Counted from the stretch's first letter, positions 8,887-64,000 are shown. The stretch: DNA of 64,000 nucleotides from Gammaproteobacteria bacterium (GCA_965222615.1 CBDCUI010000009.1:32001-96000), one strand, 5' to 3'. Notes: generated from the sequence alone by a model not told the origin. Program-made: numbers and translations.

Positions 8887-10071
8887 TTAATCGCGTCTTA
8901 ATTTATCTGAAATTGCAATGGGAGTTGGATAGCGCAGCACTATTAAATAAGTAGAAAGAATAAAGCTTACAATGGTGCATACCTGAATAAAGTTGGCGGC
9001 TTTGATCGAGATTAATCCGGCACTAAGTGCAACAAAACCTAGTAATAAAGAAAACTCGCTTAACTGGCCTAAACGCACGCCAATTTCATTTGAATCTTGT
9101 TCGGTTTCACCGCTCTTTTTTATTAATAGTTTGAACACAAATGGTTTGATGAACAATAAAACTGCACTGGTAATAATCGCTGGTATCAATAGCTGATAGG
9201 CAAGCCCTATATCTAGACTTGCACCTAAAGAAAAGAAAAATATGACTAAGAAAAAGTCTCGAATTGGCTTTAGGCTTTCAGAAATGAAGAATGAGATCGG
9301 GCCTACTGCAATCGAGACTCCTGCAATGAAAGCTCCGGTTTCATGTGATAAGCCAATAAAATAAGCGAGTTCTGCAATCCCCAAGCACCAGCCAATAGCC
9401 AATAGAAAAATGTACTCTTTGATCTTATCGAATTTCGTCATCAATTTGATTAATACATAACGTTCAACTACAAAAGTAAAGGCAATTAAACCCGGTAAGG
9501 CGATAGCAAGTTGAATGATTCCCTTTATAGCGCTGGCGTCATTACCCTGCGTCTCAATAAGAAGCAAAAGCACAATTGCCAAAATATCTTGCAGTAACAA
9601 TATACTTATAATGATTCCACCGACATGTTGGTGATGTAACACGGTTGTGGGGAGAAGTTTTAACCCAATTATGGTGCTGGAAAACATAAATGCACCTGCA
9701 ATGATTAATTGGTCCATAAGCGAAAGTTGCAATATCCAAGCTGCAGCAAAACCAATTAGGGCAAACAGTATTGAGCTTCCAAACGTTATAAGTGTTGATT
9801 GTTTGATTGATGCGAGGAGCTTTTGTGGGTGTAGATTGAGTCCCAATAAAAATAGCAAGAACATGATACCGACTTTGGCGATCTGCCGAGAAAATTCGGT
9901 ATCCGACACAAAATTCAATACTGAAGGCCCAAGAATAATGCCTACAGCTATATATGCGACCAATAATGCTTGTCTGGCAAAAAGAGCTACGGTGGCTAAT
10001 ATGGCCGCACTTGTAAAGATGATAAATATAGAAAATATAATCGATTCAGATGAGGTTATGTTTAAATCCAC
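8887..10071 (-). CDS. Cation:proton antiporter (CPA2 family)
   Basis: Multi-TM protein with AYIAVGIILGP, FLLFLLGL, SSTII, LLLQD and GQLSEF motifs. Confidence 0.85.
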   Translation of the reverse strand: MDLNITSSESIIFSIFIIFTSAAILATVALFARQALLVAYIAVGIILGPSVLNFVSDTEFSRQIAKVGIMFLLFLLGLNLHPQKLLASIKQSTLITFGSSILFALIGFAAAWILQLSLMDQLIIAGAFMFSSTIIGLKLLPTTVLHHQHVGGIIISILLLQDILAIVLLLLIETQGNDASAIKGIIQLAIALPGLIAFTFVVERYVLIKLMTKFDKIKEYIFLLAIGWCLGIAELAYFIGLSHETGAFIAGVSIAVGPISFFISESLKPIRDFFLVIFFFSLGASLDIGLAYQLLIPAIITSAVLLFIKPFVFKLLIKKSGETEQDSNEIGVRLGQLSEFSLLLGFVALSAGLISIKAANFIQVCTIVSFILSTYLIVLRYPTPIAISDKLRRD

Positions 10072-10099
10072 CTGATTACATCCTGTCTTGCATTGGCAT

Positions 10100-11299
10100 C
10101 TAACTTAACAATTCAATCCAGTGTTTAACCGGTATTTGAGTACCTGACTGTAGGTGCAACAAACAGCCGATATTAGCTGTCGCGATCACATCAGGCTGTT
10201 TTTCTTCAAGCGTTGAAATCTTATTTTGTAACAACATGTTGGATAGTTCTTCTTCAAGCAGAGAATAACTCCCAGCGGAACCACAGCATAGATGCGGCTC
10301 TTTAACATCAATTAGTTGATAACCAGCTTCTCGAAGTTTGTTTTCTACATTGCCAAGGATTTTTTGTCCATGTTGCAGTGTACAAGGACTGTGGAAAGCG
10401 ACTGTTTTATTTTTTGCCTCAGGTTTAGTTAATTTTAACTCAGGGGTCATTTCAGTAAGATCTCGACAGCGTTGCGAGACGAATTTAGCCTTATCCGCAT
10501 AAGATTTATCAGCTTGCATAATAGTGCTATATTGCTTTATAAAACTGCTGCAACCACTTGAAGTTACTAATAAATATTCATGGTTACTAGAGAGTTTTTC
10601 ATACCAATTGTCGATATTGCCACGAATGGTCTTATTGGCCTGGTCGATATTTGTTAAATGATAGGCCAGGGCTCCACAACAGTTTGCTTTGGCCTCATCT
10701 AGTTGAATATCAGAGTTTTGTAAAACCTCTGAAGTTGCTGCATTGATTTGTGGAGCTGCAGTAGACTGTACACAACCTTTTATCGTCAACATTTTTCGTT
10801 TGCTGGTTTTGGTATTAGTTGATTTGATGGGTTTAGCTTTTACTGGAATCTTACTGGCGAATGATCTTGGTAATATTGGCTTAACCAGACGGGCTAGTGC
10901 AAAAAAGCTCACAACGCGCCTAGGGTGCGAGAAAATACGAATAATCAAATTTCGTTTTAAATTATCCAAAAAAGGTCGTTCAATCGTTTTTTCAAAATGT
11001 TTGCGTCCTATATCCACTAAATCACCATATTCAACACCAGAAGGACAAGTAGTTTCACATGCCAAACAAGTCAAACATCTATCGAGGTGTTGTTGGCTCA
11101 CCTTGCTGGTGTCTTTGTTCTCAAAGAAGTTTTTAATTAAATAAATGCGCCCACGTGGGCCATCTAGTTCATCACCTGTGAGCTGAAAAGTGGGACAGGT
11201 GGCATTACAAAACCCGCAATGTACACAGTTTCGTAAAATTTCATTCACCCGCTGGCCATCGTGGCTTTGTAAAAATGCTTGTGTAAATGATGTTTGCAT
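10100..11299 (-). CDS. glcF: Glycolate oxidase Fe-S subunit
   Basis: CVHCGFCNATCP and CLTCLACETTCP ferredoxin motifs, CCG domains, operon with glcDE. Confidence 0.93.
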   Translation of the reverse strand: MQTSFTQAFLQSHDGQRVNEILRNCVHCGFCNATCPTFQLTGDELDGPRGRIYLIKNFFENKDTSKVSQQHLDRCLTCLACETTCPSGVEYGDLVDIGRKHFEKTIERPFLDNLKRNLIIRIFSHPRRVVSFFALARLVKPILPRSFASKIPVKAKPIKSTNTKTSKRKMLTIKGCVQSTAAPQINAATSEVLQNSDIQLDEAKANCCGALAYHLTNIDQANKTIRGNIDNWYEKLSSNHEYLLVTSSGCSSFIKQYSTIMQADKSYADKAKFVSQRCRDLTEMTPELKLTKPEAKNKTVAFHSPCTLQHGQKILGNVENKLREAGYQLIDVKEPHLCCGSAGSYSLLEEELSNMLLQNKISTLEEKQPDVIATANIGCLLHLQSGTQIPVKHWIELLS

Positions 11300-11304
11300 C
11301 GCGA

Positions 11305-12360
11305 TTAAAGTTCAGCGTACATCTTGCCAGGATTGAGGATGCCTGCCGGATCGAATGTTTTTTTCAAATTTTTATGTATTTTCATGGAGGTATGGGATAG
11401 TGGATGAAAGCGTTGTTCTGTAGTATTGCCTCTAAATAAACAAGCATGTCCTCCAACTTGTTCAGCTTCTTTACGAATAAGCTGTTCATCGGCATCACTT
11501 ACATACCAGCGCAATGCTCCGCTCCATTCAATGACATTGTCACCAGGTATATTTAAGATACCGGTAGCAGGCGGCACAGAAATTCTCCATAAAGACAGGT
11601 CGGTTTGGAAAAATTCATGTGTCTGCTCTTTCACACTGGTCCAAAACAATTCGTTTTGATCAAAAGTTTTTCCACCAATTTCCTTTTTACAGGCTTCAAT
11701 GGTAGATAAGGAACCTGATAAACGCAGATATAAATCCTGCCCATCATAAAAGGTTGCGGTAATAGGCATAGGTGTCGCAGCCCACTGGTTCATTTTTTTG
11801 ATGGCAGTGTGACTGTCTAATTCTATAACAACAGTGTGTTCATAAAGTGGTTTTGGTAATAGGCGTATGGTGATACACATCAACACGCCAAGTGTCCCTA
11901 ATGCCCCACACATCAAACGTGAAACATCATATCCGGCAACGTTTTTCATTACCTTGCCACCGAAGCGCAGATATTCGCCTTTGCCGTTTACGATTTCAGT
12001 TCCTAGCACACAGTCGCGTACTGCGCCTGCACTGACTCGTCTGGGTCCGGCTAAGCCACTGGCAACCATGCCACCCAATGTTGCAGTCGCTCCAAAATGA
12101 GGGGATTCACAAGGAATAATTTGGTTTTCTTTAGTTATAGTTTGCTCAATTTCTACTAGCGGAGTTCCACTTTTAACAGTTATATAAAGCTCTGAAGGCT
12201 CGTATTCGAGAATCCCTGTGTGGTTTGCCACAGAAAGTGTTTTCGCTTGAATATTTCTTCCATAAAAATTTTTCGTATCACCCGCTTTAATGACTAAAGC
12301 CTGTTTTTGGCGATATGCGTCTTGAATAACAGATGTGATCTCATCTCTTTTATCGTGCAT
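11305..12360 (-). CDS. glcE: Glycolate oxidase FAD-binding subunit
   Basis: GILEYEPSEL, FGGKVMKNVAGYDVSRL, FDPAGILNPG. Confidence 0.93.
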   Translation of the reverse strand: MHDKRDEITSVIQDAYRQKQALVIKAGDTKNFYGRNIQAKTLSVANHTGILEYEPSELYITVKSGTPLVEIEQTITKENQIIPCESPHFGATATLGGMVASGLAGPRRVSAGAVRDCVLGTEIVNGKGEYLRFGGKVMKNVAGYDVSRLMCGALGTLGVLMCITIRLLPKPLYEHTVVIELDSHTAIKKMNQWAATPMPITATFYDGQDLYLRLSGSLSTIEACKKEIGGKTFDQNELFWTSVKEQTHEFFQTDLSLWRISVPPATGILNIPGDNVIEWSGALRWYVSDADEQLIRKEAEQVGGHACLFRGNTTEQRFHPLSHTSMKIHKNLKKTFDPAGILNPGKMYAEL

Positions 12361-39393: not shown

Positions 39394-39421
39394 TTGACTC
39401 ATTACAGCCGATCAATAGAAT
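39394..39421 (+). promoter_or_regulatory. Sigma70 promoter of the original tRNA-Gly locus
   Basis: TTGACT-N16-TAGAAT, 10 nt upstream of the tRNA 5' half. Confidence 0.6.
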
Positions 39422-39431
39422 ATAAGTCTAT

Positions 39432-39469
39432 GCGGGAATAGCTCAGCTGGTAGAGCGCAACCTTGCCAA
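39432..39469 (+). repeat. Left att site: 5' half of tRNA-Gly (38 nt, ends in the anticodon loop)
   Basis: GCGGGAATAGCTCAGCTGGTAGAGCGCAACCTTGCCAA, 37/38 identical to 55068-55105. Confidence 0.95.
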
Positions 39470-48176: not shown

Positions 48177-48822
48177 AGTTATGAGGCTCACTTCCCTTTA
48201 ATAAACCTATAGGGATTCGATCCTCATAAATATGAACGGTCAGTTATTAAAACTATCTGATACTTCGTAACCAACCGATCATAGACATCACTAGGTTTTA
48301 GGGGTCGTTATCATCCCCGTTATTTCCTCCCTGGTGGTGTCTATCCACCTAGGTCCAGCTAAGGTCATCCTTAGGTCTCTCCATACATCTTCCATACCCT
48401 ATGGATGGATCTTATTGGTCCTATAACTATCTAGCTTGCCTTATGGGCTAGAGAATGGAATAGCCGGTATAGGTCTAAACTTCGCCTATGCTGGCTAGTT
48501 CCTAGCTTATAATGACCGCTAACGACCCAAAGCGGACATTCAAATCATGACAAACTAGATAGGCTGGATCTTATTCCGCTTGAACTGCCGATTTCTCACA
48601 TTTAAACATCGCTATCTATCTAATCCTGCTGTATGGTGAATCTAAGATTAGATATTCCTATCCCGATTTTCTTCCAGAGTTTCATTTCTTTGCCAGTTGT
48701 CGGCAATCATCTCTAATTACTGATTCCTTTGACACAGTGTCATTGGAGCACTAACACATGTGCAAATAGATTGAATGGGTATGCGCACAACAAGGCTCGA
48801 TCATCGAGCAAGGATATAAACA

Positions 48823-49089
48823 ATGAAACTATATGTAGGTAATTTACCTTGGAGCGTAACTGATGTGGATTTAAAAGAACTTTTTAGTGAGGTTGGCGAA
48901 GTAACAAGCGCCACCATTATCACTGATAGAGATTCTGGTCGATCCCGTGGATTCGGTTTCGTAGAAATGGCGAAAGAGGCTGGCCAACAAGCGATTAAGA
49001 AATTCAGCGAGCACGTAATTGATAACAGAACGCTGCGTGTCAATGAAGCAAATGAAAAACAACCCCGTCAAGCTGGCGGCCATTCTTAA
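48823..49089 (+). CDS. RRM (RNP-1) RNA-binding protein
   Basis: KLYVGNL (RNP2), RGFGFVEM (RNP1), LRVNEA. Confidence 0.95.
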   Translation: MKLYVGNLPWSVTDVDLKELFSEVGEVTSATIITDRDSGRSRGFGFVEMAKEAGQQAIKKFSEHVIDNRTLRVNEANEKQPRQAGGHS

Positions 49090-49169
49090 AAGGTAGTTGG
49101 GCTAATGATCTTCGGGCGACATAACAATGCCGCTCGAGATCCTTTGACTACACAAAAGGAGCTACTTCT

Positions 49170-49313
49170 ATGATCGAAGAAGAAGAAAAGAAGTTGATGG
49201 ATCAATACGGGGTCATTTCTCAGCAAAAAACGGTGTATCACTATAATGGGTACAACTATGACAATCTTGAAGATGCGATTCGGTATGCCAAGATTGACAC
49301 TCAGCGAAAGTGA
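49170..49313 (+). CDS. Small protein (47 aa), not in the ORF track
   Basis: AAGGAG RBS; MIEEEEKKLMDQYGVISQQKTVYHYNGYNYDNLEDAIRYAKIDTQRK. Confidence 0.7.
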   Translation: MIEEEEKKLMDQYGVISQQKTVYHYNGYNYDNLEDAIRYAKIDTQRK

Positions 49314-49352
49314 ATTTGGCCCGTTCCCACAAAATTCTATGAGGAAGCCAAC

Positions 49353-49745
49353 GTGAATACTATTAAAGATATCAAGATAAAAGGCTTAGACCCGAATCGA
49401 AGGCCCAGTCTAAAGAATAAAAACTACGTTGATATAATTTTCGAGCTGACTCAAAAAGCACCCAAAGACTGGTGCGCTGACTTCAATTTATTATTTTCAA
49501 AAGATAAGCACAACGCAAAGATAAATCCTGATGAGGGACGATATGTTGAGACATGGGTGAGAAATATTAACGACATTCCAAAAGAACTTGAGCTGATTAA
49601 ACAACTCATCGTAATCTGTAATAACAACTATATTGAACAAAAGCATCAAGAAGAACTAGCTTGGCAAAAATCTGAAAACAGCAAATCCAATAGCCGCAGC
49701 GATGAATTAGAAGGTATCCTGGCAAGCCTAAATTTCAATTCATAG
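49353..49745 (+). CDS. Hypothetical protein
   Basis: 130 aa, GAGG RBS, GTG start. Confidence 0.7.
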   Translation: MNTIKDIKIKGLDPNRRPSLKNKNYVDIIFELTQKAPKDWCADFNLLFSKDKHNAKINPDEGRYVETWVRNINDIPKELELIKQLIVICNNNYIEQKHQEELAWQKSENSKSNSRSDELEGILASLNFNS

Positions 49746-49776
49746 CTCTTGTCTGAAATTGGCCGAAAGGAATCAT

Positions 49777-50076
49777 ATGAATAAGGACTGCAAAGTCGTA
49801 CTTATTTCGAATTCTGGGTATAAAAAAGAACACAACGATCTATTGCAAGAGCTAATAGAAAATGAAATTGAACTTTTCTGTGCCGTGGGTATTGAGTGCC
49901 AGGAGTGGGAAGAAGCAATGGACTTGTTGTGTGCTGAGTTAGATGCAAATGACATTAAACCAAACGCTTTTTGCAACACGACATCTCATCCTAATGAAAG
50001 TGTTGAGGATGTGATTAAATTTGCCGAAAGTTGGAGCCAGAAAGGGGCAACAGAAGTAAAAATAATCGAGATTTAA
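49777..50076 (+). CDS. Hypothetical protein (cassette-like)
   Basis: ATG at 49777 after AAGGA, directly abutting the degenerate 30-bp site. Confidence 0.7.
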   Translation: MNKDCKVVLISNSGYKKEHNDLLQELIENEIELFCAVGIECQEWEEAMDLLCAELDANDIKPNAFCNTTSHPNESVEDVIKFAESWSQKGATEVKIIEI

Positions 50077-50219
50077 CTAATGTAGTAGATGACCGCTATT
50101 GGCCGAAAGCGGACATAAACTAAGCCAGTAAGGCAGAAATTAGGTTGGATTCCATAAATAACATGTTCAAAATGACTGCTAACGACCCAAAGCGGACATA
50201 GGAAATAATAATATTTGAT

Positions 50220-50654
50220 ATGAAAAAGATACCAACTTTAAAAGCCGCGATGACTCCTTTCCCATATTCTGTACAGCTTGAAACGACGCTTACTGCTGTA
50301 AGGAATTTGATGCAAACGCACAATATTCATCATATTCCAGTTATGAATAGTGGGAAAATTGTAGGTGTAGTAACCGCAAGAGATGTTGAGGCAAGGCAAA
50401 AGATGATGGATAGCGATGATAATGAACCATCACTTGAGGTATTGCATGTTCCTATGTCTAAGGCTTATATCGTCGATATCAATGAACCGCTTGAAAATAT
50501 ATTGTTAACAATGGCTAGTAAACGAATTGGGGCTACTGTCGTAACTAAACATGGAAAATTAGTAGGAGTCTTTACATATATTGATGCTTGTCGTTATTTT
50601 AGTGAATACATAAAAGCAAAGTTTCCTAAAAATAATGATAATGATGCGGCATAA
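50220..50654 (+). CDS. CBS domain protein (cassette-like)
   Basis: AMTPFP, IHHIPV, IVGVVTARD, LVGVFTYID. Confidence 0.9.
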   Translation: MKKIPTLKAAMTPFPYSVQLETTLTAVRNLMQTHNIHHIPVMNSGKIVGVVTARDVEARQKMMDSDDNEPSLEVLHVPMSKAYIVDINEPLENILLTMASKRIGATVVTKHGKLVGVFTYIDACRYFSEYIKAKFPKNNDNDAA

Positions 50655-50742
50655 GCATCAACTTTTGAATGACTGCTTTTGGCCGAAAGCGGACATAAAG
50701 AGCTAAGCCACATTAAAGCAACCTAGCTCTATCCCTGTAGCA

Positions 50743-53756: not shown

Positions 53757-54086
53757 ATTAGTGATGAAACTTTATCCCTTAGCGAAGCTGCACATCTATT
53801 AAAGATGTCACCTGAAGCGTTACGGCGCAAAGCTAAGGCCTGTGATATTCCTGGCGCAAAACCTGCCAAGGAATGGGTATTTATTAAGGAAGATTTACTC
53901 GCTTACATCCGCTCATGTTATGCTAAACCTGTAACTGTGTGGAGTGAGCGATCAACTGAAAAGGAGATCAATCAATGCCATACAAACGAAAAGACAATGG
54001 AGTCTATTACTCCAATTTTGAATCCAGAAGTGGAGAGCGGGTACGAAAGAGCCTTAGGACGCGTGATAGAAATGAGGCCATCATAA
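53757..54086 (+). CDS. Excisionase-like HTH protein (HTH_17), apparent ATT start
   Basis: ETLSLSEAAHLLKMSPEALRRKAKACDIPGAKPAKEWVF; AAGGAG 6 nt before ATT; in-frame TAA at 53751. Confidence 0.8.
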   Translation: MSDETLSLSEAAHLLKMSPEALRRKAKACDIPGAKPAKEWVFIKEDLLAYIRSCYAKPVTVWSERSTEKEINQCHTNEKTMESITPILNPEVESGYERALGRVIEMRPS

Positions 54087-55036
54087 AAGAGGCTGAATTG
54101 ATTGCGGCAGATAAGGGTGAAGTCGTACAGATTAACAATAACCGGAAAACTTGGCGTGATGCTGTTTACCGATACTGGAATGAAGTGGAAGGTAAAGCTA
54201 GCGCTGATTGTATTCAAATACATTTAAGGTTCTTGGATACATTCTTAGGAGATAAGTATCTCGATGAGATCAATGATGAACTTATCGAAGATATTATTGC
54301 TGCTAAAAGTAGTGAGAAAAACCGTAAAGGTGAGAAGCTATCCGGTGCTACAGTTAATCGATTAACGGCGACGTTAAAGTCGGTGTTCAATAGTGCAAAG
54401 AAATACAGATGGATCGACAACGTTCCGTATGTAAGAAAGTTAGAAGAGTCAGAGGGTAGGAGTAGGTATCTCACACCATCTGAATCTAAACGATTACTTG
54501 ATCATTGTGCTGAACACTTAAAACCGATAGTGACATTTGCTTTGCATACAGGCTTGAGAAAGCAGAATGTATTAAGGCTTAGATGGGAGAATGTAGACCT
54601 CGATCAAGGTAAGTGCTGGGTGCTTAGCTCAGAGCATAAAAACCGAAAGGCGAGGGGTGTTACTCTCAATAGTGTTGCTTTAGGGGTGCTACGAGAATTA
54701 GCTATATATAAGGTGTCGCCCTATGTATTTAACTATAGGGGGCGGCCTATTGGAGATGTGAAGACGGGACTTAAGCGAGCCTGTGAACGGGCTGGCTTAA
54801 AGGACATATCCTTCCACACATTTCGACATACTTATGCTTCTTTACTAGCACAGCAAAACGTTTCGACCCTAGTTTTAAAGGAGCTAGGTGGATGGAAGTC
54901 AATGCAAATGGCTCAAAGATACGCTCATCTTAATGATGACGGACTGCGAGAATACCAAGAATTGCTTGTAGGTTTGTCACAGTACTGTGACAAAAATCCA
55001 CCGCCCAAGTTAAGGCTAGTAAGTGGAAAATCGTAA
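53975..55036 (+). CDS. Tyrosine recombinase/integrase
   Basis: HTGLRKQN, FHTFRHTYAS, LGGWKSMQMAQRYAH; adjacent to the att site. Confidence 0.95.
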   Translation: MPYKRKDNGVYYSNFESRSGERVRKSLRTRDRNEAIIKEAELIAADKGEVVQINNNRKTWRDAVYRYWNEVEGKASADCIQIHLRFLDTFLGDKYLDEINDELIEDIIAAKSSEKNRKGEKLSGATVNRLTATLKSVFNSAKKYRWIDNVPYVRKLEESEGRSRYLTPSESKRLLDHCAEHLKPIVTFALHTGLRKQNVLRLRWENVDLDQGKCWVLSSEHKNRKARGVTLNSVALGVLRELAIYKVSPYVFNYRGRPIGDVKTGLKRACERAGLKDISFHTFRHTYASLLAQQNVSTLVLKELGGWKSMQMAQRYAHLNDDGLREYQELLVGLSQYCDKNPPPKLRLVSGKS

Positions 55037-55067
55037 GTGATTGAGTTAAATTAGGAAATTCGGTTAT

Positions 55068-55143
55068 GCGGGAATAGCTCAGTTGGTAGAGCGCAACCTT
55101 GCCAAGGTTGAGGTCGCGAGTTCGAACCTCGTTTCCCGCTCCA
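55068..55143 (+). tRNA. tRNA-Gly(GCC), reconstituted at the right att site
   Basis: 76 nt, GCGGGAA/TTCCCGC acceptor stem, anticodon loop TTGCCAA, GTTCGAAC, CCA. Confidence 0.97.
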
Positions 55144-55429
55144 TAACTATTATCTAAGTTTGGTGGTCTACAACTACTTTCTAAAGTTACCCCTTAATCA
55201 CTCAGCAAGCTTCCTATTTCAAGACTAAAAAGAAAAATTCTCTAAGGGGGAGGGCATAAATGAGCTGCCCACACACACAAAAGAGCAAAGTACTATTAGA
55301 TAAAATACTTAATAAATCAGCTGAAGTATGAATCTAGAGTTTAAAGTAGTAAAATACATAGTTGTGTACCGTATTTAATTGCTTTGCTTTATATATGGTT
55401 TGTTTTTATTATTTATTATATGTGTAAAT

Positions 55430-56239
55430 TTATTTTCTTCTTATATTAGGTTTGATCCCAATAATGGATTCTCTTATCTGTATCCATATTTGAAGTATTG
55501 TCTTTTTTAAAAGATCACCGTCGGGTACAAGGAACTTAATAATGAGCCCACATTCATTGGGTAACAATGTAGCGCCTCCGTAAATATTGTCATAATTTTG
55601 CATATTAGTTTGTAAAGTTTCTAGTAAAGAATTATTCATATTTGAGCGGTTAATAACTGAAACTGTACCCATACCAATATATCTTTGTTTGCTATTTAAA
55701 AAGTTTTTTTGGTTCATTAGATAGGCATCTTTAGCTAGAAGCTCATTTTTTTCTGTATAAATTTGTAAATAGCTATTTAGTTGACTAAAAAGCTGGTTGT
55801 TGCCATTGAGAAAATGCAATAAGAAAGCATCCACAATGACAACGGTACTTGTTTCATCAACATATGCATTAATTGTCGAGTAAAGCTTAGATGCCGGAAA
55901 AAGTATTAGTGGATCCGATATGTATTCCGTATAGGCATGTTCATTAGCGTTTATATTAATAACTTGTTGCGCATTTTTATTTGTCATGCCATGTACAATA
56001 GTGGAAGCCTGTGTTGTGATATGACTAAATGATTCTGCATTAGCAGTTACATTGGTAGTAAGCGTTTCATTTTCGTATATTCCACCCGATGCAGATTGAA
56101 TATAGATATTGGCCATACCGTAAGGGTCATTCTCATAATATTGAGTCCGACAAATATGAAAAGGGTAGGATGCATACTGATTCTTAAGGTATGTTTTTCC
56201 ATCTTCGTTTTTAGTAAATTCCAGAGATAATTCACTCAT
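55430..56239 (-). CDS. ureD: Urease accessory protein UreD
   Basis: QYASYPFHI, SASGGIYENE, ITTQASTIVH, DPLILF; cluster context. Confidence 0.85.
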   Translation of the reverse strand: MSELSLEFTKNEDGKTYLKNQYASYPFHICRTQYYENDPYGMANIYIQSASGGIYENETLTTNVTANAESFSHITTQASTIVHGMTNKNAQQVININANEHAYTEYISDPLILFPASKLYSTINAYVDETSTVVIVDAFLLHFLNGNNQLFSQLNSYLQIYTEKNELLAKDAYLMNQKNFLNSKQRYIGMGTVSVINRSNMNNSLLETLQTNMQNYDNIYGGATLLPNECGLIIKFLVPDGDLLKKTILQIWIQIRESIIGIKPNIRRK

Positions 56240-56262
56240 TAACTTATTTTTATCGTTTTGAG

Positions 56263-56874
56263 TTAATTGAATAACACATTATTGACTATATGATTAACAA
56301 CTTCTTCTATACCTTCTCCAGTTTTGCAGTTAGTGAGTACAAGGGGTTTACCATCCCTAACTTCTTGGCTTTCTTTCACCATTAAGTCAACATCGGCGCC
56401 TACATAGGGGGCCAGATCAACTTTATTGATCACCAATAGATCGGATTGCACAACTCCTGGTCCGCGTTTTCTAGGAATATCGTCGCCTTCGGAGGTATCG
56501 ATGACGAACATCCAATAATCGACAAGGTCTAGAGAAAAGGTGGATGCAAGATTATCGCCACCACTTTCAATCAATATGATGTCCAAATTTTGGAATTCAT
56601 TATCCAAGCGATCTGCAGCTTGTATATTTAAGGTGGGATCTTCGCGAATAACGGTATGTGGACAAGCACCGGCTTCCACTGCAATAACACGTTCAGGTGC
56701 AAGCAAACCCGATTGCTGTAGACGTTTAGCATCTTCTCGCGTAACTAAATCATTCGTTACAATTGCAATTTCATTTCCTCTATTAATAAAAAAGGGAATT
56801 AATTGCTCAATCAGTGCAGTTTTCCCTGAACCAACAGGACCACCGATACCGACTCGTGCAGGACCATTTGACAT
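56263..56874 (-). CDS. ureG: Urease accessory GTPase UreG
   Basis: [24 protein letters not shown]. Confidence 0.95.
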
Positions 56875-56882
56875 GTGTGTAG

Positions 56883-58595
56883 CTACCGAAGCATATATCG
56901 CTGAGTTAGTGGTAATGTTTTAGCGGGCTCGCAAGTAGCAAGCTCATCATCCACATAGACATCAAAGGTTTCAGGATTGACAGTAACTTTTGGACAACTA
57001 TCGTTATGTAACATGTGACTTTTGTTCAATTTGCGCGTGCCTTGTGCAGGCAAATTGGTTTTTTGAAGCTGCAATTTATCACCAATATTATCATCAACTG
57101 CAGATTGGTTGACAAAATTTACACTTAGATGTTGCTTAGCATTACCAAATGCACCCCATTGTGGTCGCATCGCTAAAGGTTCACAAGTCATTAACGATGC
57201 AGCACTGTCGCCCATTGCCGACCAAACAATAAATCCACCTTTAACGACTAGTTCAGGTTTAATTCCAAAAAATGCAGGTTTCCACAAGACTACATCACCC
57301 ATTTTTCCCTTTTCCAGAGAACCGATGTACTGATCAATACCAAAAGTACGTGCAGCATTAATTGTATATTTTGCAATAAAACGTTTTATTCTTTCATTAT
57401 CACCACCTTTAGTAGTTTCTTCTGCAAGGCGCCCGCGTTGGTCTTTCATCTTGCTAGCAAGTTGCCAAGTTCGACAAATGACTTCATTAATGCGACCCAT
57501 ACCTTGACTGTCTGAACCCAACATAGAAATTGCACCAAGATCATGTAATACATCTTCTGCGGCAATGGTCTGTGCACGAATACGACTCTCGGCAAATGCT
57601 ACGTCTTCCGGTATGGCGGGGTTTAAATGATGACAAACCATTGTCATATCTAAATGCTCATCAAAGGTATTAACGGTATATGGATTTGTCGGGTTGGTAG
57701 AGGAGGGCAGACAGTTATATTCACCAGCAACCCGGATAATATCGGGAGCATGACCTCCACCTGCACCTTCGGTGTGATACATATGAATTGTACGACCATT
57801 GATTGCCGCTAAGGTGTTTTCGACAAAACCACTCTCGTTGAGTGTGTCTGTATGCAATTGGACCTGGAAATCTAAATCATCAGCAACGGCAAGGCAGGTG
57901 TCAATTACTGCAGGCATCGCGCCCCAATCTTCATGAATTTTTAGTCCTAAACAGCCCCCCGCCATTTGGTCGATTAAAGATCTAGGTTTAGATGAATTAC
58001 CACGCCCCAAAAAACCAAAGTTTAGCGGCCATTGTTCCGATGCTTGTAACATCTTGCCAACATTCCACGCACCGCCACAATCGATACCTACTGTAATTGG
58101 TCCAAGTGAGCCTCCAATCATAGTAGTAATACCAGAACTTATTGCATGTTCACAGAGTTGTGCACTGTCAAAATGTACATGTACATCTATTCCCCCAGGG
58201 GTTGCAATAAGTCCTTCTGCATCACGCACAGTAGTTGCTGCTGCACAAACAAGATCAGGGTCAACATTGTCCATAGTGGCGGGATTACCCGCTTTGCCTA
58301 CACCGGCAATTTTTCCTTGTTTAATTCCGATATCGGCTTTAACGATTCCCAATACAGGATCGATAACCAGTGCATTGCTAATTAACATGTCTAACGACCC
58401 TGCAGCACTATCATAGCCAGGGGTTAACCCCAAGCCATCACGTAATGTTTTACCTCCTCCATGTAAACACTCATCACCATGTACAGCATAATCGTGTTCC
58501 ACTTCTGCTAATAAAGATGTATCACCAAGGCGTACCGCATCTCCAGTAGTGGGGCCGTACATCACTGCGTATTCTTTTCTTGAAATTTTGATCAT
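56883..58595 (-). CDS. ureC: Urease alpha subunit (divergent)
   Basis: [50 protein letters not shown]. Confidence 0.93.
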
Positions 58596-58597
58596 TG

Positions 58598-59299
58598 TTA
58601 TACTCCTTTATACCCGCGGATTTTTGCTTGATATAGAGCTTCTTGTTTTTTAACTTCATTAGAAGTCGATCCATTCGTTAAGCTATTTAAACCATGCACT
58701 TCTCCTGCACCACCGAACGGGACTAATTTTACTTCTTTGCTTTCACCTGGTTCAAAACGTACTGCGGTGCCTGCAGGAATATCTAAATGTTTTCCAAATG
58801 CATTTTCGCGTTTGAAATCTAGAGCAGGGTTAACCTCAAAGAAATGAAAGTGGCTGCCAATTTGTACAGGTCGATCTCCAGTATTTAACACTTTAATCTT
58901 CGTAGAAGATTTATTTTCGTTAATTTTCACATCACCGCTACCAGGAATTATTTCACCGGGTGTGACATCATCTTTACTTTTAGACTTTTTCTTGCCTGAA
59001 CGGATTGGTTCGTGAACGGTTACAAGTTTTGTTCCATCAGGAAATGTTGCTTCTACTTGTAGCATATGCATCATTTCTTCTACACCAGTCATTACATCAT
59101 CAGTACTTAATAGGGTAGAGCCATGACTAATCAGCTCTGCTACAGTGCGTCCTTCTCTAGCACCTTCTAATATTTCATCTGCAATAATTGCAGTTGCTTC
59201 AGGATGGTTTAATTTTAATCCTTTTTTTTGTCTTTTTCGTGCCAGCTCGGCTGCTGTATATATAGTTAGTCGTTCTAATTCGGTTGGTGTTAAAAGCAT
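58598..59299 (-). CDS. ureAB: Fused urease gamma/beta subunit
   Basis: [21 protein letters not shown] (gamma) plus [28 protein letters not shown] (beta). Confidence 0.93.
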
Positions 59300-59332
59300 T
59301 GTTCTCCTCCAAATTTTAGAATAATTATTTAT

Positions 59333-60013
59333 TTAGTTCACAAACAGCCTTGCGTCAGCATTTTCATGACGCATAGAAGCGATATCTGCCAAAGGAGTAA
59401 AAGCATTAATTTCTTCAATTTCAGGAATTGGCCAAGCCGAAGCCTCAGTAATTAAGTTACAAATTCTTGATAAGCTTTTTTGGCATTCAATGTGTCCAAT
59501 AAGCCCAAGCCGTAATGCGGCTCCAAATACAGAGACGCAAAAATTATATGCGGATAAAAGTAATACAAAGTTTTTAGGCAGGCCTATCGAATTCCATATC
59601 AACCCTTGTGATATAGGCAAATGCCCATAGGCTTTGTTGCTTTTAATTAAAGATTGGTAATATTGTGCTTCTGGAATGTTTAATTTGTTATAAGTGGTTA
59701 ATAAAGCCGCGCCTAATCTTTTTGAACCATTTCTTAGTTCGCTAGCTAATGTCATGCATTCAACTAAATGATCTATATAAATTATTTTTTCTATATCATT
59801 TACATTGTCATAAGTATGAGCCAAAACGACCCGTTCGAATGGGCTCCATCTTTCAATAAGTTGGTTTTTGACAAAATCTTTCACATCTTTTGTAGAAGTG
59901 ATGATATTGTCATCCTTTAACATTTCTAAACCCCAAGAAAATGACACGGCACCAGACGGGAAAAAACTATCACCGTGTTGCAAGAGAGTAAGAATTTGTT
60001 TTTCTTTAGTCAT
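59333..60013 (-). CDS. ureF: Urease accessory protein UreF
   Basis: DSFFPSGAVSFSWGLE, AALRL, HENADARLFVN. Confidence 0.9.
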   Translation of the reverse strand: MTKEKQILTLLQHGDSFFPSGAVSFSWGLEMLKDDNIITSTKDVKDFVKNQLIERWSPFERVVLAHTYDNVNDIEKIIYIDHLVECMTLASELRNGSKRLGAALLTTYNKLNIPEAQYYQSLIKSNKAYGHLPISQGLIWNSIGLPKNFVLLLSAYNFCVSVFGAALRLGLIGHIECQKSLSRICNLITEASAWPIPEIEEINAFTPLADIASMRHENADARLFVN

Positions 60014-60455
60014 TATTAATTTGTTTTACTTTTTTTTGTGTAAAGAAGTCTTGTAGGCGTTCTAGGTAGATTTTTTTTGGATTTTCAAGAGCGATATCTA
60101 AGCGGTCTTTTGCAAATTTCACGCGCCAATGCATGTTGCCAGCAAAATATCCTAGTTCAATAGCTGCTGAAACATCTGTAGGTTGAAGTGAAAGCCATCG
60201 ATCTTCGGATGTTTTAACTACGATAGCTCGATCTTTTTCAAGCAATAAAACTGCACCATTTGATAATTTATTGTCACGCGAAATAGAAACAGCACAGTCA
60301 GTGCCTTTATCAGTTTGAGCTCGAAATCGCCTGCGTTGTAAATTTGCGTGATCTAGAACAATATATTCAACTTTATTTTGGTGTGACAAATCGTGCAGTA
60401 TATTCGACAGTTTCGAATCATGTGAATAACCAACTACGTTTTGTATCTGTATCAT
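60006..60455 (-). CDS. ureE: Urease accessory protein UreE
   Basis: RRRFRAQTDKG, LGYFAGNMHW; no His-rich tail. Confidence 0.85.
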   Translation of the reverse strand: MIQIQNVVGYSHDSKLSNILHDLSHQNKVEYIVLDHANLQRRRFRAQTDKGTDCAVSISRDNKLSNGAVLLLEKDRAIVVKTSEDRWLSLQPTDVSAAIELGYFAGNMHWRVKFAKDRLDIALENPKKIYLERLQDFFTQKKVKQINND

Positions 60456-60509
60456 TAGGAATTATTATTTACATCAATATTCAACCAAATATTTTTTATT
60501 CCTCAAAAT

Positions 60510-60581
60510 AAAAAAGGCCCACCCGCACAAGTAATTTTGTGCTGGTAGGCCCCTTTGCCTGGTCCGTGCAATTTACACGGT
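60510..60581 (-). promoter_or_regulatory. ANTAR-type leader: dual hairpins overlapping an intrinsic terminator
   Basis: Minus strand: CCGTG-TAAATTG-CACGG, AGGC-AAAGGG-GCCT, then GGCCTACC..GCACAA/TTGTGC..GGTGGGCC-TTTTTT. Confidence 0.8.
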
Positions 60582-60756
60582 TAATCTGTAATTAAATGTC
60601 TAGATATATGTTTACTATAAACTTAAAGTTCTTTATATAGTCATAGCTATTTCTAATTCTGACTGTAAATATACGCTAGGTCAAGTTTACTGTGTTTTGT
60701 TTATTAACGTTTAGATTTCAATATGCCCTTCCTTATCTAGTTTTATTCTATGCGGC

Positions 60757-61374
60757 TCATATAACTTCATTCGCATGGATTATAGCCTCAGCGACATTTT
60801 GGATAGTGGTATGTTTTTGCATAGCATGTTTTCTAATAATCCGATAAGCCTCAGCTTCATTAACAGAGCGCTTGGTCATAATAATTTCTTTGGCTTTCAC
60901 TAGGGTATTAAGATTTTTTATTCGTTGTTCAAGTTTATTATTATGTTCACGAGCCTGCTGGTGTCTATTGTAGCTTCTTTGTGCAATGATAAGGCTAGAT
61001 AAAATACCAAAATTTCGAAACGGTAAACCAATAACCGCGTCGGCATTCAGTCTTAATGATGCTTCAATCGATACAGGATTTTCATAATCAAGGACCACAA
61101 CCAATGCGGCGGGTGGGTTTTTGACATCCCAATTAAATGCAACTTCTGTTTCAACAATAGGCCGCAGAGCTACCATAACGACGTCAATATCTGATGTAAT
61201 ATTTTTAGGTGGAGGCCAAGAACTAGTAATCCGGCAACCTATTCTTTCTAAGTGTTTATATAGATTTTTACTATCTCTACTACGAGGTTGAATTAGTAAT
61301 AGACGAGTGGTGCGTATATTACGGATCAGCTCAGAAACTGATCCTTTTGTATTTCTATCCCAACCACGACTCAT
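60757..61374 (-). CDS. AmiR-like ANTAR antitermination regulator
   Basis: Pseudo-receiver N-terminus; KAKEIIM...EAEAYRIIRKHAM...VAEAII ANTAR motif. Confidence 0.88.
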   Translation of the reverse strand: MSRGWDRNTKGSVSELIRNIRTTRLLLIQPRSRDSKNLYKHLERIGCRITSSWPPPKNITSDIDVVMVALRPIVETEVAFNWDVKNPPAALVVVLDYENPVSIEASLRLNADAVIGLPFRNFGILSSLIIAQRSYNRHQQAREHNNKLEQRIKNLNTLVKAKEIIMTKRSVNEAEAYRIIRKHAMQKHTTIQNVAEAIIHANEVI

Positions 61375-62516
61375 TGATGATTTGCTAACCTTAACCCCAT
61401 TTCCAAATTTTGTCTGGAGTGGTCAACTAAATAGGGATCTGGTTTTATAGGCTTGTTTGATTGAGCTATTATTTTGTAGTCGCCATGCGGATTAATTTTT
61501 GCAATCCTTGACCATAGGTATGCATGATGAGTTTCAGAATCAATCCGGATGGTACCTTGAGGTGCATTGATTTCTATTTCTGGAATAGCGCTTCTAAGTA
61601 TCGCTGTATCCAGGCTATTTGTATGTGCAAGGGCCTTAGCAAATAAATGAAATTGAAAATAAGCAGCCTCACAACACATGCTTGTACGTTGGTGTTGTCC
61701 GAATTTTTCACGATAGTTTTTTGTAAATAAATTATTAGCTTTACTATCAATAGACTCAAAATATGTCGCAGCACCGATATGTCCGCTGGCAACAGAATAC
61801 CCCATCTGTTCAATTTCAGCTTCAGATGTTACAACGCTCGCAATAGGGAGTTCAGTCGGGTCAAGGCCTATGCGGTTATATGCTTCATAAAAGCTTATAA
61901 TCGATTGCCCTACTAAAATTGAAAAAATTATATCTGGTTTATTTTTTGCGATATCTTCGATTGTTTTTGAGATTTCTTGCTCGCTAGCATTTAGCGAGTG
62001 ATACTTTTCATTTAGGATAGTACCACCACTTTCTGTGACTAGATCAAAAACTATTCTGTGTGATTCGTAAGGAAAAATATAATTTGAGCCTACCAGATAA
62101 AACCTTTTCCCATAGTTTTTGAGTAAATAATCCGTCAACCAAACGCTGTATTGATTAGGACAAGCACCTGTATAAAAGACGTTTTCAGAAAATTCAAATC
62201 CTTCATAGAAAGTCGGATAAAATAGCAAAGCATTGTTTTGTTCAATAACTGGCAACATCGCCTTGCGACTGGCTGATGTATAACCACCGAAAATAACATT
62301 TACACCATCATTATTAACTAACCGTTCAGCTAAATCATGATAATTTTCAGGATCAGAAGCTGGGTCATAAATAACAGGTTCAACCTCTCTCCCGGCGATT
62401 CCACCAGCTGCATTAACTTCTTCAATAGCAAGCAGGGTTCCGTTTAACAGTGTTTGTTCAGAAACAACGGTACAACCAGACTTAGAGAATAGAACACCGA
62501 TGCGCCAAGGTTGCAT
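61371..62516 (-). CDS. AmiC-like cytoplasmic amide sensor (periplasmic binding protein fold, no signal peptide)
   Basis: IGVLFSKSG, YDPASDP, GYTSASRKA, YPTFYEGFE, VGSNYIFP; overlaps the ANTAR gene by 4 nt. Confidence 0.88.
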   Translation of the reverse strand: MQPWRIGVLFSKSGCTVVSEQTLLNGTLLAIEEVNAAGGIAGREVEPVIYDPASDPENYHDLAERLVNNDGVNVIFGGYTSASRKAMLPVIEQNNALLFYPTFYEGFEFSENVFYTGACPNQYSVWLTDYLLKNYGKRFYLVGSNYIFPYESHRIVFDLVTESGGTILNEKYHSLNASEQEISKTIEDIAKNKPDIIFSILVGQSIISFYEAYNRIGLDPTELPIASVVTSEAEIEQMGYSVASGHIGAATYFESIDSKANNLFTKNYREKFGQHQRTSMCCEAAYFQFHLFAKALAHTNSLDTAILRSAIPEIEINAPQGTIRIDSETHHAYLWSRIAKINPHGDYKIIAQSNKPIKPDPYLVDHSRQNLEMGLRLANHQ

Positions 62517-62921
62517 GCTAATTTCGACTATTAATAAATAAAATGTGTAAGGTCACATAGTAACGAAAGCTTAAGATATTCGCTACCAAAGATAGAGTAA
62601 AAATATCATTTGTTGGTTTGTTCTAGGAGCGTTAGCCGCCGAAACCCATAAAAAAACTCAGGAAACTATACCTATAGGAAAGTATTAAGTTTTTGGTAAA
62701 AATTAACTTACTTCGCAGCATTTTTTAAAGATGATCAACCACAGTGTATTAATATGTTTTATTCAGGTTTTTTAACTTTATTAATCCTAAAGTAGTAGTC
62801 CCTTCCTTAATTAAAAAACATAAATTAGCTAGTACATAATTGTAAAGATAATGTTTCTAATTTACTTTAGATGAGTGATTTGAGATAGAATTATTCATAT
62901 AAAAATTATTAGGATAGGCTC

Positions 62922-63830
62922 ATGTGTGGGATTGCCGGCATTATGCTGAAGGACTCATCCAACTTTAAGACAGGTGAGGCTTTGGTGAATATGCTGAACG
63001 GCTGTCAACACCGTGGCCCAGATTCTACTGGTTTCGCTTTATATAGCGACTCGCATGAAAATACATTAAAACTAAGACTATTAGTAGGTAAAGGTGAAAT
63101 AGGGACTGCAGCGATTACCAGAATTAAAAAACTGCTGCAAGAATATGACGCATCCATTATAGATGAGGAGCATATTGGAGAAACCTATCGCGGAACAGTT
63201 AAATACTCAGGTGATATTCAAAAATTTTCTTACGCACTTGAACACGCCGCAAAAGTTGTTTCTATCGGAAATAGCCTGGAGATTATTAAAGATGTAGGCA
63301 GTGCAGAAGATGTAGACGAACGTTATGACATACATAAATATACGGGCTCACATGGTTTAGGACATGTACGGTTAGCAACGGAATCAGATGTGAAGCCTGA
63401 GGCTGCACATCCTTTTTGGGCCACCGGGTTTGCAGATGTTGCCATTGTACACAATGGGCAAATCACAAATTACTGGAAAATGCGCAGACGTCTTGAACAA
63501 CGTGGTTATGAATTTCGTACAGATAACGATAGTGAGCTAATCGCTGTTTATCTTGCGGATAAACTATCTCAAGGTATTGCATTAAAAGAAGCGCTTAAGA
63601 CTTCTATTGATGACCTGGATGGTACATTTTCATTCCTTGTTTCTACAAAAGATGAAATCGGTTATGCAAAAGATCGCTTGGCAGTCAAGCCTATGGTTAT
63701 GTATGAAACGGATGATTTAGTTGCGGTGGCATCTGAGGAAGTCTCGCTTAATAGATTATTTCCAGGACAAGCACTTAATACTAAAGAACCACCACCAGGA
63801 ACTTATAACACATGGTCACGATCGATCTAG
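62922..63830 (+). CDS. Class II glutamine amidotransferase, N-methylglutamate synthase subunit A-like (GlxB/MgsA)
   Basis: MCGIAG, RGPDSTG, GHVRLATES, AHPF, HNGQITN, TDNDSE. Confidence 0.8.
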   Translation: MCGIAGIMLKDSSNFKTGEALVNMLNGCQHRGPDSTGFALYSDSHENTLKLRLLVGKGEIGTAAITRIKKLLQEYDASIIDEEHIGETYRGTVKYSGDIQKFSYALEHAAKVVSIGNSLEIIKDVGSAEDVDERYDIHKYTGSHGLGHVRLATESDVKPEAAHPFWATGFADVAIVHNGQITNYWKMRRRLEQRGYEFRTDNDSELIAVYLADKLSQGIALKEALKTSIDDLDGTFSFLVSTKDEIGYAKDRLAVKPMVMYETDDLVAVASEEVSLNRLFPGQALNTKEPPPGTYNTWSRSI

Positions 63831-64000
63831 GCAAAACTTCCGTTAGAGAAGGTAACGAACAAATTCGGCAATGCGGTCAGAATGGGGAAAATGTTGAAGT
63901 CATCAATCCAGATGCGCGTCATCATATCGGCGTAGGTTTAATTCACCCCATTAATGTAAAAGTACGAGGTTCTGCAGGTTATTTCTGTGCAGGATTAAGT
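63812..64000 (+). CDS. 5' part of a GXGXG-domain protein (GlxC/MgsB-like)
   Basis: MVTIDLGKTSVREGNEQIR...NPDARHHIGVGL...RGSAGYFCAGL; overlaps the upstream gene. Confidence 0.75.
   Translation, partial: MVTIDLGKTSVREGNEQIRQCGQNGENVEVINPDARHHIGVGLIHPINVKVRGSAGYFCAGLS

Follow-up and report, generated by a model that had tools for sequence, protein, structure and literature searches.

The urease-type operon and its AmiC/AmiR-like regulators

The window analysed here, a stretch of 64,000 nucleotides from a Gammaproteobacteria bacterium (GCA_965222615.1, CBDCUI010000009.1:32001-96000), holds a divergent urease operon headed by two regulatory genes related to amiC and amiR of amidase operons. Eight intact genes on the minus strand fill positions 55430-62516: an amiC-like gene, an amiR-like gene and, after a gap of 300 nt, ureE-ureF-ureAB-ureC-ureG-ureD (Table 1). 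The gamma, beta and alpha subunits and the accessory proteins UreD, UreE, UreF and UreG are all encoded, a full urease gene set according to Pfam and curated profiles, and RefSeq annotation already labels genes of the divergent clade described below as urease. The fusion of UreA with UreB and the gene order E-F-AB-C-G-D, both noticed in an original prediction made from the sequence alone, were confirmed from open reading frames (ORFs) and family matches; Pfam places Urease_gamma at residues 1-99 and Urease_beta at residues 114-210 of the fused protein.

The regulators, which the same prediction had described as AmiC/AmiR-like, proved to be true homologues by profile and by structure-derived match: the cytoplasmic AmiC-type protein matches the solved AmiC 1pea (288.5 bits, E 7.7e-85), stays below the cut-off of the UrtA family TIGR03407 (357.6 against 492.75 bits), and is paired with a protein of AmiR_N and ANTAR domains. 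The RNA leader between amiR and ureE (60500-60600, minus strand) folds with -38.6 kcal/mol (z -6.1; 0/200 shuffles as stable), and its hairpin with a U-run, which is what an AmiR-type antiterminator needs, is a putative AmiR-controlled terminator. This element was absent from the listing of a simple terminator scan and matched no Rfam family, and the classical pair of hexaloop hairpins expected as an ANTAR target was not recognised in the leader. Strong hairpin and T-run elements lie 3' of amiR in 11 of 25 evaluable related loci.

Two AmiC/AmiR pairs are present in the genome; their AmiC proteins are 53% identical, and the AmiR-like protein of the window is the product of one of two ANTAR genes. 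The second pair belongs to a classical amiC-amiR-amiE-cbbQ-like-VWA set about 12 kb from the canonical urease on another contig (G000 contig C8, 936900-943250; L125, 3902-10252), with a second Urt-like transporter on the opposite strand between that operon and the canonical urease. The operon downstream of the pair in the window is ureEFABCGD and includes no aliphatic amidase; amiE stands on C8 behind the other AmiC/AmiR pair. A pocket motif, YTSASRKA, is shared by the urease-linked AmiC, a Methylophaga sensor and the transporter binding proteins of the clade, and WTSxSRK of UrtA is close to it. The amiE-linked AmiC of the genome has YMSSTRKA, P. aeruginosa AmiC has YMSHTRKA, and the pattern YMS[HS][TA]RKA also occurs in the sensors of L047 and L104. 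If the residues of this motif have the roles that we assume for them, YTSASRKA hints at a urea-like rather than an acetamide-like inducer.

Table 1 Features of the urease locus (window positions; aa, amino acids).
Feature	Position	Strand	Details
AmiC-like cytoplasmic ligand sensor	61371..62516	-	381 aa, start without signal peptide; Peripla_BP_5 453 bits
AmiR-like antiterminator	60757..61374	-	PF21332 (AmiR_N) 96.6 bits, PF03861 (ANTAR) 45.4 bits; 4-nt overlap with amiC end
Leader RNA elements in amiR-ureE gap	60505..60580	-	hairpin ~60564-60580; long G+C-rich hairpin and U-run ~60505-60556
ureE	60006..60455	-	149 aa, no His-rich tail; UreE_N; NF009752 equivalog 177.9 bits (cut-off 162)
ureF	59333..60013	-	PF01730 99.2 bits
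ureAB, fused gamma and beta subunits	58598..59299	-	233 aa; NF009671 346.4 bits (cut-off 243)
ureC, alpha subunit	56883..58595	-	570 aa; TIGR01792 826.9 bits (cut-off 680)
ureG GTPase	56263..56874	-	TIGR00101 249.9 bits (cut-off 204.2)
ureD	55430..56239	-	PF01774 95.3 bits
Class-II glutamine amidotransferase (GATase_6/7)	62922..63830	+	first gene of divergent operon running past the window
tRNA-Gly(GCC)	55068..55143	+	Rfam; cluster boundary

Pocket wall and phylogeny of the divergent UreC

The metal centre of the divergent UreC is preserved. In an alignment to K. aerogenes UreC (1ejw_C), the nickel ligands and the carbamylated lysine are all kept (H139, H141, K219, H248, H274 and D362, equivalent to K. 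aerogenes H134, H136, K217, H246, H272 and D360), as are, in K. aerogenes numbering, H219, D221, G277, the C319-H320 of the flap, R336 and M364, so that the intact ligands and Cys-His-His flap reported in the original prediction align with their K. aerogenes counterparts throughout. The protein also exceeds the cut-off of the curated urease equivalog, for which the canonical UreC of the same genome scores 1005.4 bits.

The wall around this centre is rewritten. WICPQ, directly after the HxH ligands, reads FDSAQ; the loop GGGTGPAAGTHATTCTPG is replaced by one three residues shorter, with Ala167 changed to Gly and Thr169 to Asp in the alignment used, in which the gap placement is not unique; SDSQAMGR has become SDSQGMGR, that is, Ala363Gly; and a second stretch, residues 465-479, is rewritten too. 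The two altered motifs and the shortened segment had been pointed out in the prediction, and the survey of relatives bears them out. Among the 120 best database proteins (84-96% identical to UreC, all but two of 570 aa), the Cys-His-His flap is present in all and FDSAQ with SQGMGR in 119; a regular expression for the loop matched 91, and the other 29 were missed through variation in its required prefix and are not shown to be loop-less. Across 197 aligned clade sequences, 25 positions are fixed and differ from 18 canonical sequences (bacteria and one eukaryote, at least 90% of which had to carry a different residue). Five of them fall within 143-147 and 163-164 and four within 170-174, position 365 is another, and residues 465-479 hold a second cluster; an overall tally assigns 11 of the 25 to the two pocket-wall loops plus Ala363Gly. 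D143, S163, L164, G170, I171, D172, G174 and G365 are 100% conserved in 197/197 sequences. Since the motif changes are fixed across the clade, they are not noise, and the departure from the conserved pocket wall (GGGTGPxxGTxATTCTPG with Ala167, plus Ala363) is likewise found in 197/197.

The available text of PMC7433671 counts Ala167 and Ala363 among the ten residues that enclose the K. aerogenes active site, and describes the equivalent carbonyls of S. pasteurii urease as hydrogen-bonding the Ni(2)-bound urea nitrogen. On that description the changes in the divergent UreC concern the wall of the substrate pocket, and the rebuilt wall (shorter loop, Ala167Gly, Ala363Gly, Asp143, Asp172) probably changes kinetics, inhibitor sensitivity or substrate range. 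An AF2 model of UreC has the urease fold (pTM 0.91) and superposes on solved ureases with Z 57, an rmsd of 1.7-2.1 A and 55-56% identity (for 7kns_A and 1a5m_C, Z 57.5 and 1.8-2.0 A over 550-557 residues). Its pLDDT falls below 50 precisely at UreC 164-173 and 463-482, the rebuilt segments, and for this reason no pocket geometry can be derived.

The clade is 75-96% identical across Alpha- and Gammaproteobacteria, and canonical ureases are at most 59% identical to the query. A UreC match was found in 124 of 401 genomes sampled from the phylum, with identities of 100, 80, 76 and 76% and then none above 59%. A UreC phylogeny, one of the checks named in the original prediction, was computed as a quick IQ-TREE maximum-likelihood run with 61 rows: 22 of 80 related loci plus the query, the genome's own canonical copy, three representatives of 50% clusters, 17 representatives of distant urease-like proteins, and 17 sequences fetched as canonical from the phylum sample, three of which proved to be variants. 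In this tree, which was rooted at the midpoint only and has long branches in several outer rows, the divergent paralogues are monophyletic (SH-aLRT 100, stem 0.29), and their sister (support 88) is a variant with the same three-residue deletion. Judged from these comparisons, the divergent UreC is a real, distinct lineage of urease paralogues. Its carriers are methylotrophs and sponge-associated and marine bacteria, and it is found on plasmids of Aminobacter, Methylobacterium, Shinella and Acinetobacter. A literature search of CC-licensed PMC papers and bioRxiv returned no paper distinguishing this clade, its rebuilt active site or an AmiC/AmiR-controlled urease.

Further urease-like alpha subunits, 37-58% identical, were encountered at L102 (G369:C152) and L103 (G061:C1) and as P0124, P0126, P0127, P0129, P0131, P0133 and P0146; several of them have no Cys-His-His flap and yet keep S[QTM]GMGR and a shortened loop. 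From their sequences, this set looks like an unexplored radiation of urease relatives.

Genomic contexts and the substrate of the divergent urease

Gene contexts were counted at 80 of at least 513 related loci; the counts are lower bounds owing to crude ORF calling in high-GC loci. All six ure genes stand in the order E-F-AB-C-G-D at 61 of the 80, and the other 19 are incomplete, mostly at contig ends, with the order broken in none. The layout met most frequently runs amiC-amiR-(UrtA-like binding protein)-urtBCDE-ureEFABCGD; genes for an AS-family amidase, AmiE, a CbbQ-like AAA protein and a VWA protein commonly come after it. Here amiE passes its equivalog cut-off (719.9 against 427 bits), the permease and ATPase genes pass those of UrtB-E, and nickel transporters of the NicO/HupE type are also found. 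AmiR was detected near 26 of the 80 loci, AmiE near 24, an AS amidase near 10 and the formamidase FmdA near six. At L005-L009, the closest relatives (90-96% identical), the urease adjoins neither an AmiC/AmiR pair nor the glutamate-synthase-like operon. A type-III glutamine synthetase (GS) gene stands immediately upstream of it at L008 and L009 (TIGR03105, 675.9 bits for L008), and L006 carries a different ABC transporter.

Such regularity leaves hardly any room for a decaying or inactive duplicate. The unusual motifs, and nothing else, would speak for one; the reading frames are intact, the accessory genes keep their order as described, and in 153 of 171 pairs of genomes the clade UreC is better conserved than its canonical counterpart (medians of 80.7% and 76.5% identity). 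On account of this conservation we regard an inactive duplicate as effectively refuted.

Two loci depart from the usual gene content. L039 (a Sneathiellaceae bin) and L045 (Marinibaculum pumilum) have, at 10001-11713, a clade UreC (78% identical) followed by a UreD-like gene only, and no UreAB, E, F or G within 10 kb on either side; sarcosine-oxidase-like genes are near, and each genome has three UreC matches.

A second, canonical urease, whose presence the original prediction had wished to see checked, was found in the same genome: urtABCDE-ureDABCEFG on contig C8, with UrtA above its cut-off. A second UreC likewise occurs in 5/5 named carriers and in 3/3 carriers of the phylum sample. The divergent UreC is the sole UreC match (E<=1e-40) in 12 of 50 additional carriers, including the chromosome-level records behind L006 (95% identical) and L016, although many of the 12 are metagenome bins, so that absence of another UreC is not proven in them. 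A further arrangement was seen in genome G413 (L015), which encodes three UreC paralogues outside the canonical type, with identities to the query of 84, 68 and 64%; two of them lie within 10 kb on one contig.

Links to methylated-amine metabolism do exist, at a lower strength than first proposed. A GS-III-like, Sox-like, Tmm/Tdm-like or DmgH/MefH-like gene accompanies the urease at 18/80 loci, with GS-like genes at seven, SoxB-like and SoxA-like genes at five and three, and Tmm/Tdm-like genes at four. The part of the proposed linkage that rested on GlxB-like genes did not stand, such a GATase being found at only 2/80 loci and in none of the closest relatives. Just 3' of the urease operon, the Methylobacterium loci L067, L070, L079 and L080 carry genes for a BP5-type binding protein, a DUF1989+GCV_T protein, a Tmm-like flavin monooxygenase and a LuxR-type regulator; DUF1989 with GCV_T is, we presume, the domain make-up of the demethylase of trimethylamine N-oxide (TMAO).

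The most telling neighbours are genes of the arginase family, present at six of the 80 loci: as a tandem pair immediately upstream of ureE at L011, L019, L020, L028 and L046, and in single copy at L015. In its fullest form the module before the urease consists of an SsuA/NMT1-type ABC transporter, a GS-like gene, a HypB-like gene and the two tandem arginase-family genes; the HypB-like gene accompanies four of the five pairs (not L028), its identity having been checked at L046 alone. Among solved structures, the best matches of the L046 pair are the subunits of metformin hydrolase (612 and 558 bits), with 69% identity to the Pseudomonas enzyme. According to the accessible part of Sinn et al. 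2024 (PMC11399263), dimethylguanidine is split into dimethylamine and urea by DmgH of Aminobacter and by a Hyphomicrobium homologue of 70% identity; a urease gene lies downstream of dmgH, and the authors take this clustering to support dimethylguanidine as the native substrate. The alpha subunit of the tandem pair has Cys184 and Thr-Thr-Ala at 288-290, a set that agrees with neither of those given there for DmgH (Ser; Ser-Thr-Ser) and MefH (Cys; Asn-Ser-Ala). In four genomes with the arginase-family module (G410, G416, G417, G432), no other UreC was found. Furthermore, a plasmid of Aminobacter niigataensis carries amiC-ANTAR-SBP-urtBCDE-ureEF(AB)CGD-hupE after genes for allantoinase and allantoate amidohydrolase. 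Both the DmgH-like contexts, as far as the cited description extends to them, and the ureide contexts deliver urea, and the simplest reading of the enzyme is therefore a urease; the partner enzyme, and not the urease, would release the methylated amine, which would explain the enrichment in methylotrophs.

Guanylurea was also considered as a substrate, from an apparent near-identity of the arginase-family pair to metformin hydrolase. The idea was downgraded because the pair is just 69% identical, a value that equally fits the 70%-identical dimethylguanidine hydrolase in the consulted part of Sinn et al. The divergent clade is found on a plasmid of Aminobacter sp. NyZ550. This strain is said to leave guanylurea unused, which would speak against a substituted urea as substrate.

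From the DmgH-like partners, the genomes in which the divergent UreC is the sole match and the ureide genes of Aminobacter, urea is the likely substrate, and we favour, with some reservation, the reading that the operon encodes a substrate-inducible, catabolic nickel urease isozyme whose physiological substrate is urea and whose kinetics or regulation have changed. In the absence of ligand, the AmiC-like protein would hold AmiR, and transcription would end at the leader terminator; binding of a small urea- or amide-like ligand to AmiC would free AmiR and allow read-through of the leader. UreDEFG would then load nickel, and the enzyme would hydrolyse urea to ammonia and carbamate, the ammonia entering GS and glutamate synthase (GOGAT), possibly by way of the adjoining glutamate-synthase-like operon. 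The canonical urtABCDE-ureDABCEFG cluster would have a scavenging role, and the divergent clade would work in catabolic modules by which urea is taken up or set free, namely aliphatic amidase/Urt-like operons, dimethylguanidine-hydrolase-like operons and ureide genes.

Several observations speak against so conservative an interpretation. A loop that is invariant in the 18 canonical sequences has been replaced, both alanines that hold the nitrogen are now glycines, and the two new aspartates, Asp143 and Asp172, are invariant in the clade (197/197). In the tree, the clade shares a group of support 100 with urease-like proteins from which the Cys-His-His flap has been lost. A further canonical or other UreC is present in 9/9 carriers plus 38 of the 50 additional ones (there at identities of at most 68%, some matches being partial), and the retention of another UreC by most carriers fits a different job for the divergent clade. 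The binding proteins associated with the related loci score 398-406 bits against the UrtA cut-off of 492.75, and UrtA above the cut-off was found in 0/5 sole-urease genomes, a result that we rate as favouring neither side. When the divergent urease locus was compared with the canonical one in each of 20 genomes (related genomes, which are not independent), AmiR, AmiE, CbbQ-like and VWA genes adjoined the divergent loci only, at 11, 9, 7 and 7 of 20 against 0/20 for each at canonical loci. Finally, the literature search turned up no assayed enzyme of the clade in the CC-licensed PMC papers and bioRxiv preprints covered.

Some of these features have led us to consider that specificity has shifted or broadened towards N-substituted ureas or ureides (methylurea, dimethylurea, guanylurea, biuret, acylureas), a view that we hold possible, though rather unlikely. 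The two Ala-to-Gly changes and the shorter loop would free space beside the Ni(2)-bound nitrogen, the new aspartates would bind a polar or cationic substituent, and methylamine, guanidine or amide products would pass to the neighbouring GS-like, Sox-like or AmiE enzymes. It would suit a concentration of changes in an otherwise invariant pocket wall, the co-existing canonical urease, the neighbouring amidase, formamidase and methylated-amine genes counted above, and binding proteins that fall short of UrtA; GS-like and SoxB-like genes also adjoin 3/20 and 4/20 divergent loci of the paired comparison and none of the 20 canonical ones. The sister lineages, which are further diverged, point the same way: at both L102 and L103 UreAB is fused and accompanied by Ure accessory genes and binding proteins of the BP5/BP6 type, and L102 also has an AmiC/AmiR pair, L103 amidase genes. 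Against it, the hydrogen-bond acceptors affected by the Ala-to-Gly changes are backbone carbonyls and stay, the GlxB-like linkage is confined to two loci, the low pLDDT of both rebuilt segments gives no pocket geometry to build on, and the divergent enzyme is the sole urease in the 12 genomes mentioned and stands downstream of enzymes whose relatives release urea according to the available account of DmgH. Fused UreAB and neighbouring AmiC/AmiR and amidase genes are common to the wider urease-like group, in which some members have no flap; clade and group together could be a radiation of nickel amidohydrolases from urease that cleaves N-substituted ureas or ureides, with the window enzyme as an early, still urease-like member whose true substrate would be something other than plain urea. 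This extension, too, we put forward as a tentative and less probable alternative. Of the original interpretation, the distinct paralogue with an altered pocket wall behind AmiC/AmiR regulators holds up, and the methylurea or methylamide hydrolase that it proposed is a possibility and no more.

Control by AmiC/AmiR and the AmiE and FmdA neighbours would also accord with a nickel-dependent short-chain amidase for formamide or acetamide, recruited to an amidase regulon and no longer in need of the second urea nitrogen. Jack bean urease has activity on formamide, acetamide and N-methylurea to some extent. The reference list of PMC7433671 cites work on jack bean urease with these three compounds, which would indicate a latent, weak amidase activity. 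We nevertheless consider such an amidase very improbable: the operons already encode AmiE or FmdA, which hydrolyse amides without nickel; the amiE of this genome has its own AmiC/AmiR pair on another contig; and the hydrogen-bond acceptors for the urea nitrogens (G277, D221 and the flap His) are kept. The urea-hydrolysing isozyme thus remains our preferred reading.

Flanking genes, kindred systems and significance

Upstream of the urease operon, on the opposite strand, a divergent operon begins with the 302-aa class-II GATase of Table 1 and continues outside the window with a 655-aa GXGXG+Glu_synthase flavin mononucleotide (FMN) gene and an 842-aa GltD-like gene, their start and stop codons overlapping; a NicO-like gene and hypBAEDF follow. 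Its description in the original prediction as opening with GlxB/GlxC-like genes is right as to the class-II GATase in first position and needs qualifying for what follows, where the GXGXG and FMN parts are fused and the GltD-like gene comes next. The latter has Fer4_20 and Pyr_redox_2 domains, reaches 394 bits with NF009410 (under the cut-off of 516) and overlaps the stop of the FMN gene by 4 nt.

The prediction had further taken this operon for an adjacent N-methylglutamate synthase. GATase-II, GXGXG and FMN parts do lie in separate or partly fused genes, as in that enzyme. The N-methylglutamate synthase reaction is redox-neutral, and the enzyme is not known to have an NAD(P)H-oxidoreductase subunit. 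By this distinction, the GltD-like reductase subunit fits a reaction of the glutamate-synthase type rather than N-methylglutamate synthase. No gmaS (GS-like) or mgd genes lie beside the operon, and the two extra GS-like genes of the genome are about 70 and 95 kb further on contig C9, adjoining other Glu_synthase-domain genes. With the coupled GltD-like subunit, no adjacent gmaS or mgd, and an adjacency that is not conserved (the two GlxB-like cases in 80), the assignment is not convincing, and a role in ammonia assimilation, or otherwise no relation to the urease, is the best reading of this neighbour. Elsewhere, contigs C8 and C9 of the genome (G000) encode a 1553-aa GltB, six further Glu_synthase-domain genes and the two extra GS-like genes (C9, ~166.8-170.9 kb and 191.5-193.9 kb), which suggests several amine-assimilation modules of the GlxBCD/GS type.

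An Rfam scan of 55000-64000 gave nothing above threshold except the tRNA-Gly on the other side of the cluster. A sub-threshold match to the Helicobacter 5' ureB antisense sRNA at 58150-58445 (plus strand; 23.9 bits against a gathering score of 40, E 0.004) runs antisense to the 5' part of ureC and probably reflects no more than conserved coding sequence. A phage-type integrase (53975-55036) lies directly before the intact tRNA-Gly, and a 54-nt direct repeat (39416-39469 and 55052-55105, 87% identical) is a copy of the 5' part of tRNA-Gly(GCC). Between the repeats lie ~15.6 kb with many ORFs that have no Pfam match, a stretch that by its layout looks like an integrative element; the urease cluster is just outside it. 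Four copies of a ~48-nt element with a core of the type ATGACYGCT...CCSAAAGCGGACAT at 48493-50697 are possibly a small palindromic repeat family.

Compared with the ureases of K. aerogenes and Sporosarcina pasteurii, the divergent enzyme is alike in its alpha subunit (55-56% identical), fold, nickel ligands, carbamylated Lys, His219/Asp221, flap, Arg336, Met364 and UreDEFG. It is unlike canonical bacterial urease in having FDSAQ for WICPQ, a rewritten, shorter loop, Ala167Gly, Ala363Gly and a rewritten 465-479 stretch, and further in its fused gamma-beta subunit, its gene order and its AmiC/AmiR control, where canonical contexts are of the urea-transporter or Ntr type. A fused gamma-beta subunit is known from Helicobacter (H. 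pylori UreAB, H. mustelae UreA2B2, PDB 3qga), and H. mustelae likewise has a second urease paralogue beside the standard one. H. mustelae UreA2B2 is an iron urease and is not known to have accessory genes of its own, unlike the operon described here with its full UreEFGD set. Since the clade groups with proteobacterial variants, in a tree built without Helicobacter sequences, its gamma-beta fusion appears independent of that of Helicobacter.

The regulatory part resembles amiEBCRS of P. aeruginosa in the AmiC match to 1pea, in AmiR_N with ANTAR and in the leader terminator, and many related loci add amiE, a CbbQ-like AAA gene (like AmiB) and a VWA gene; it differs in that a urease operon is controlled and in the sensor motif. 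Six of the 80 loci resemble the Aminobacter dimethylguanidine/metformin hydrolase operons, as these are presented in the available part of PMC11399263, by a urease operon of the same type beside arginase-family genes. The urease downstream of the chromosomal dmgH in A. niigataensis DSM 7050 may belong to the clade. Arginase-family hydrolase genes of the DmgH type are absent from the window, the whole genome not having been searched for them. A further parallel is the FmdA and FmdDEF cluster of Methylophilus methylotrophus, where an Urt/Liv-type transporter with an AmiC/UrtA-like binding protein accompanies amide-hydrolysing enzymes; this system is not known to include a urease of its own.

The annotation of these genes as urease and, from the accessible text of the papers, a urease downstream of dmgH were known already; within the literature searched, what is new is that the clade and its rebuilt active site are set apart. 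Few metalloenzymes are as specific or as well studied as urease, whose pocket-wall loop is regarded as invariant, while a large, tightly conserved lineage rewrites this loop and both of the alanines by which the leaving nitrogen is held. Should the enzyme have remained a urease, it would reveal how much of the "invariant" wall is dispensable, and would represent a substrate-induced isozyme that annotation pipelines lump with scavenging ureases. With a shifted specificity, it would be the first natural hydrolase derived from urease that acts on a different substrate, and a route for the breakdown of substituted ureas, including pollutant-derived ones. The distinction of the clade matters for inferring the turnover of urea, guanidine and amides from genomes.

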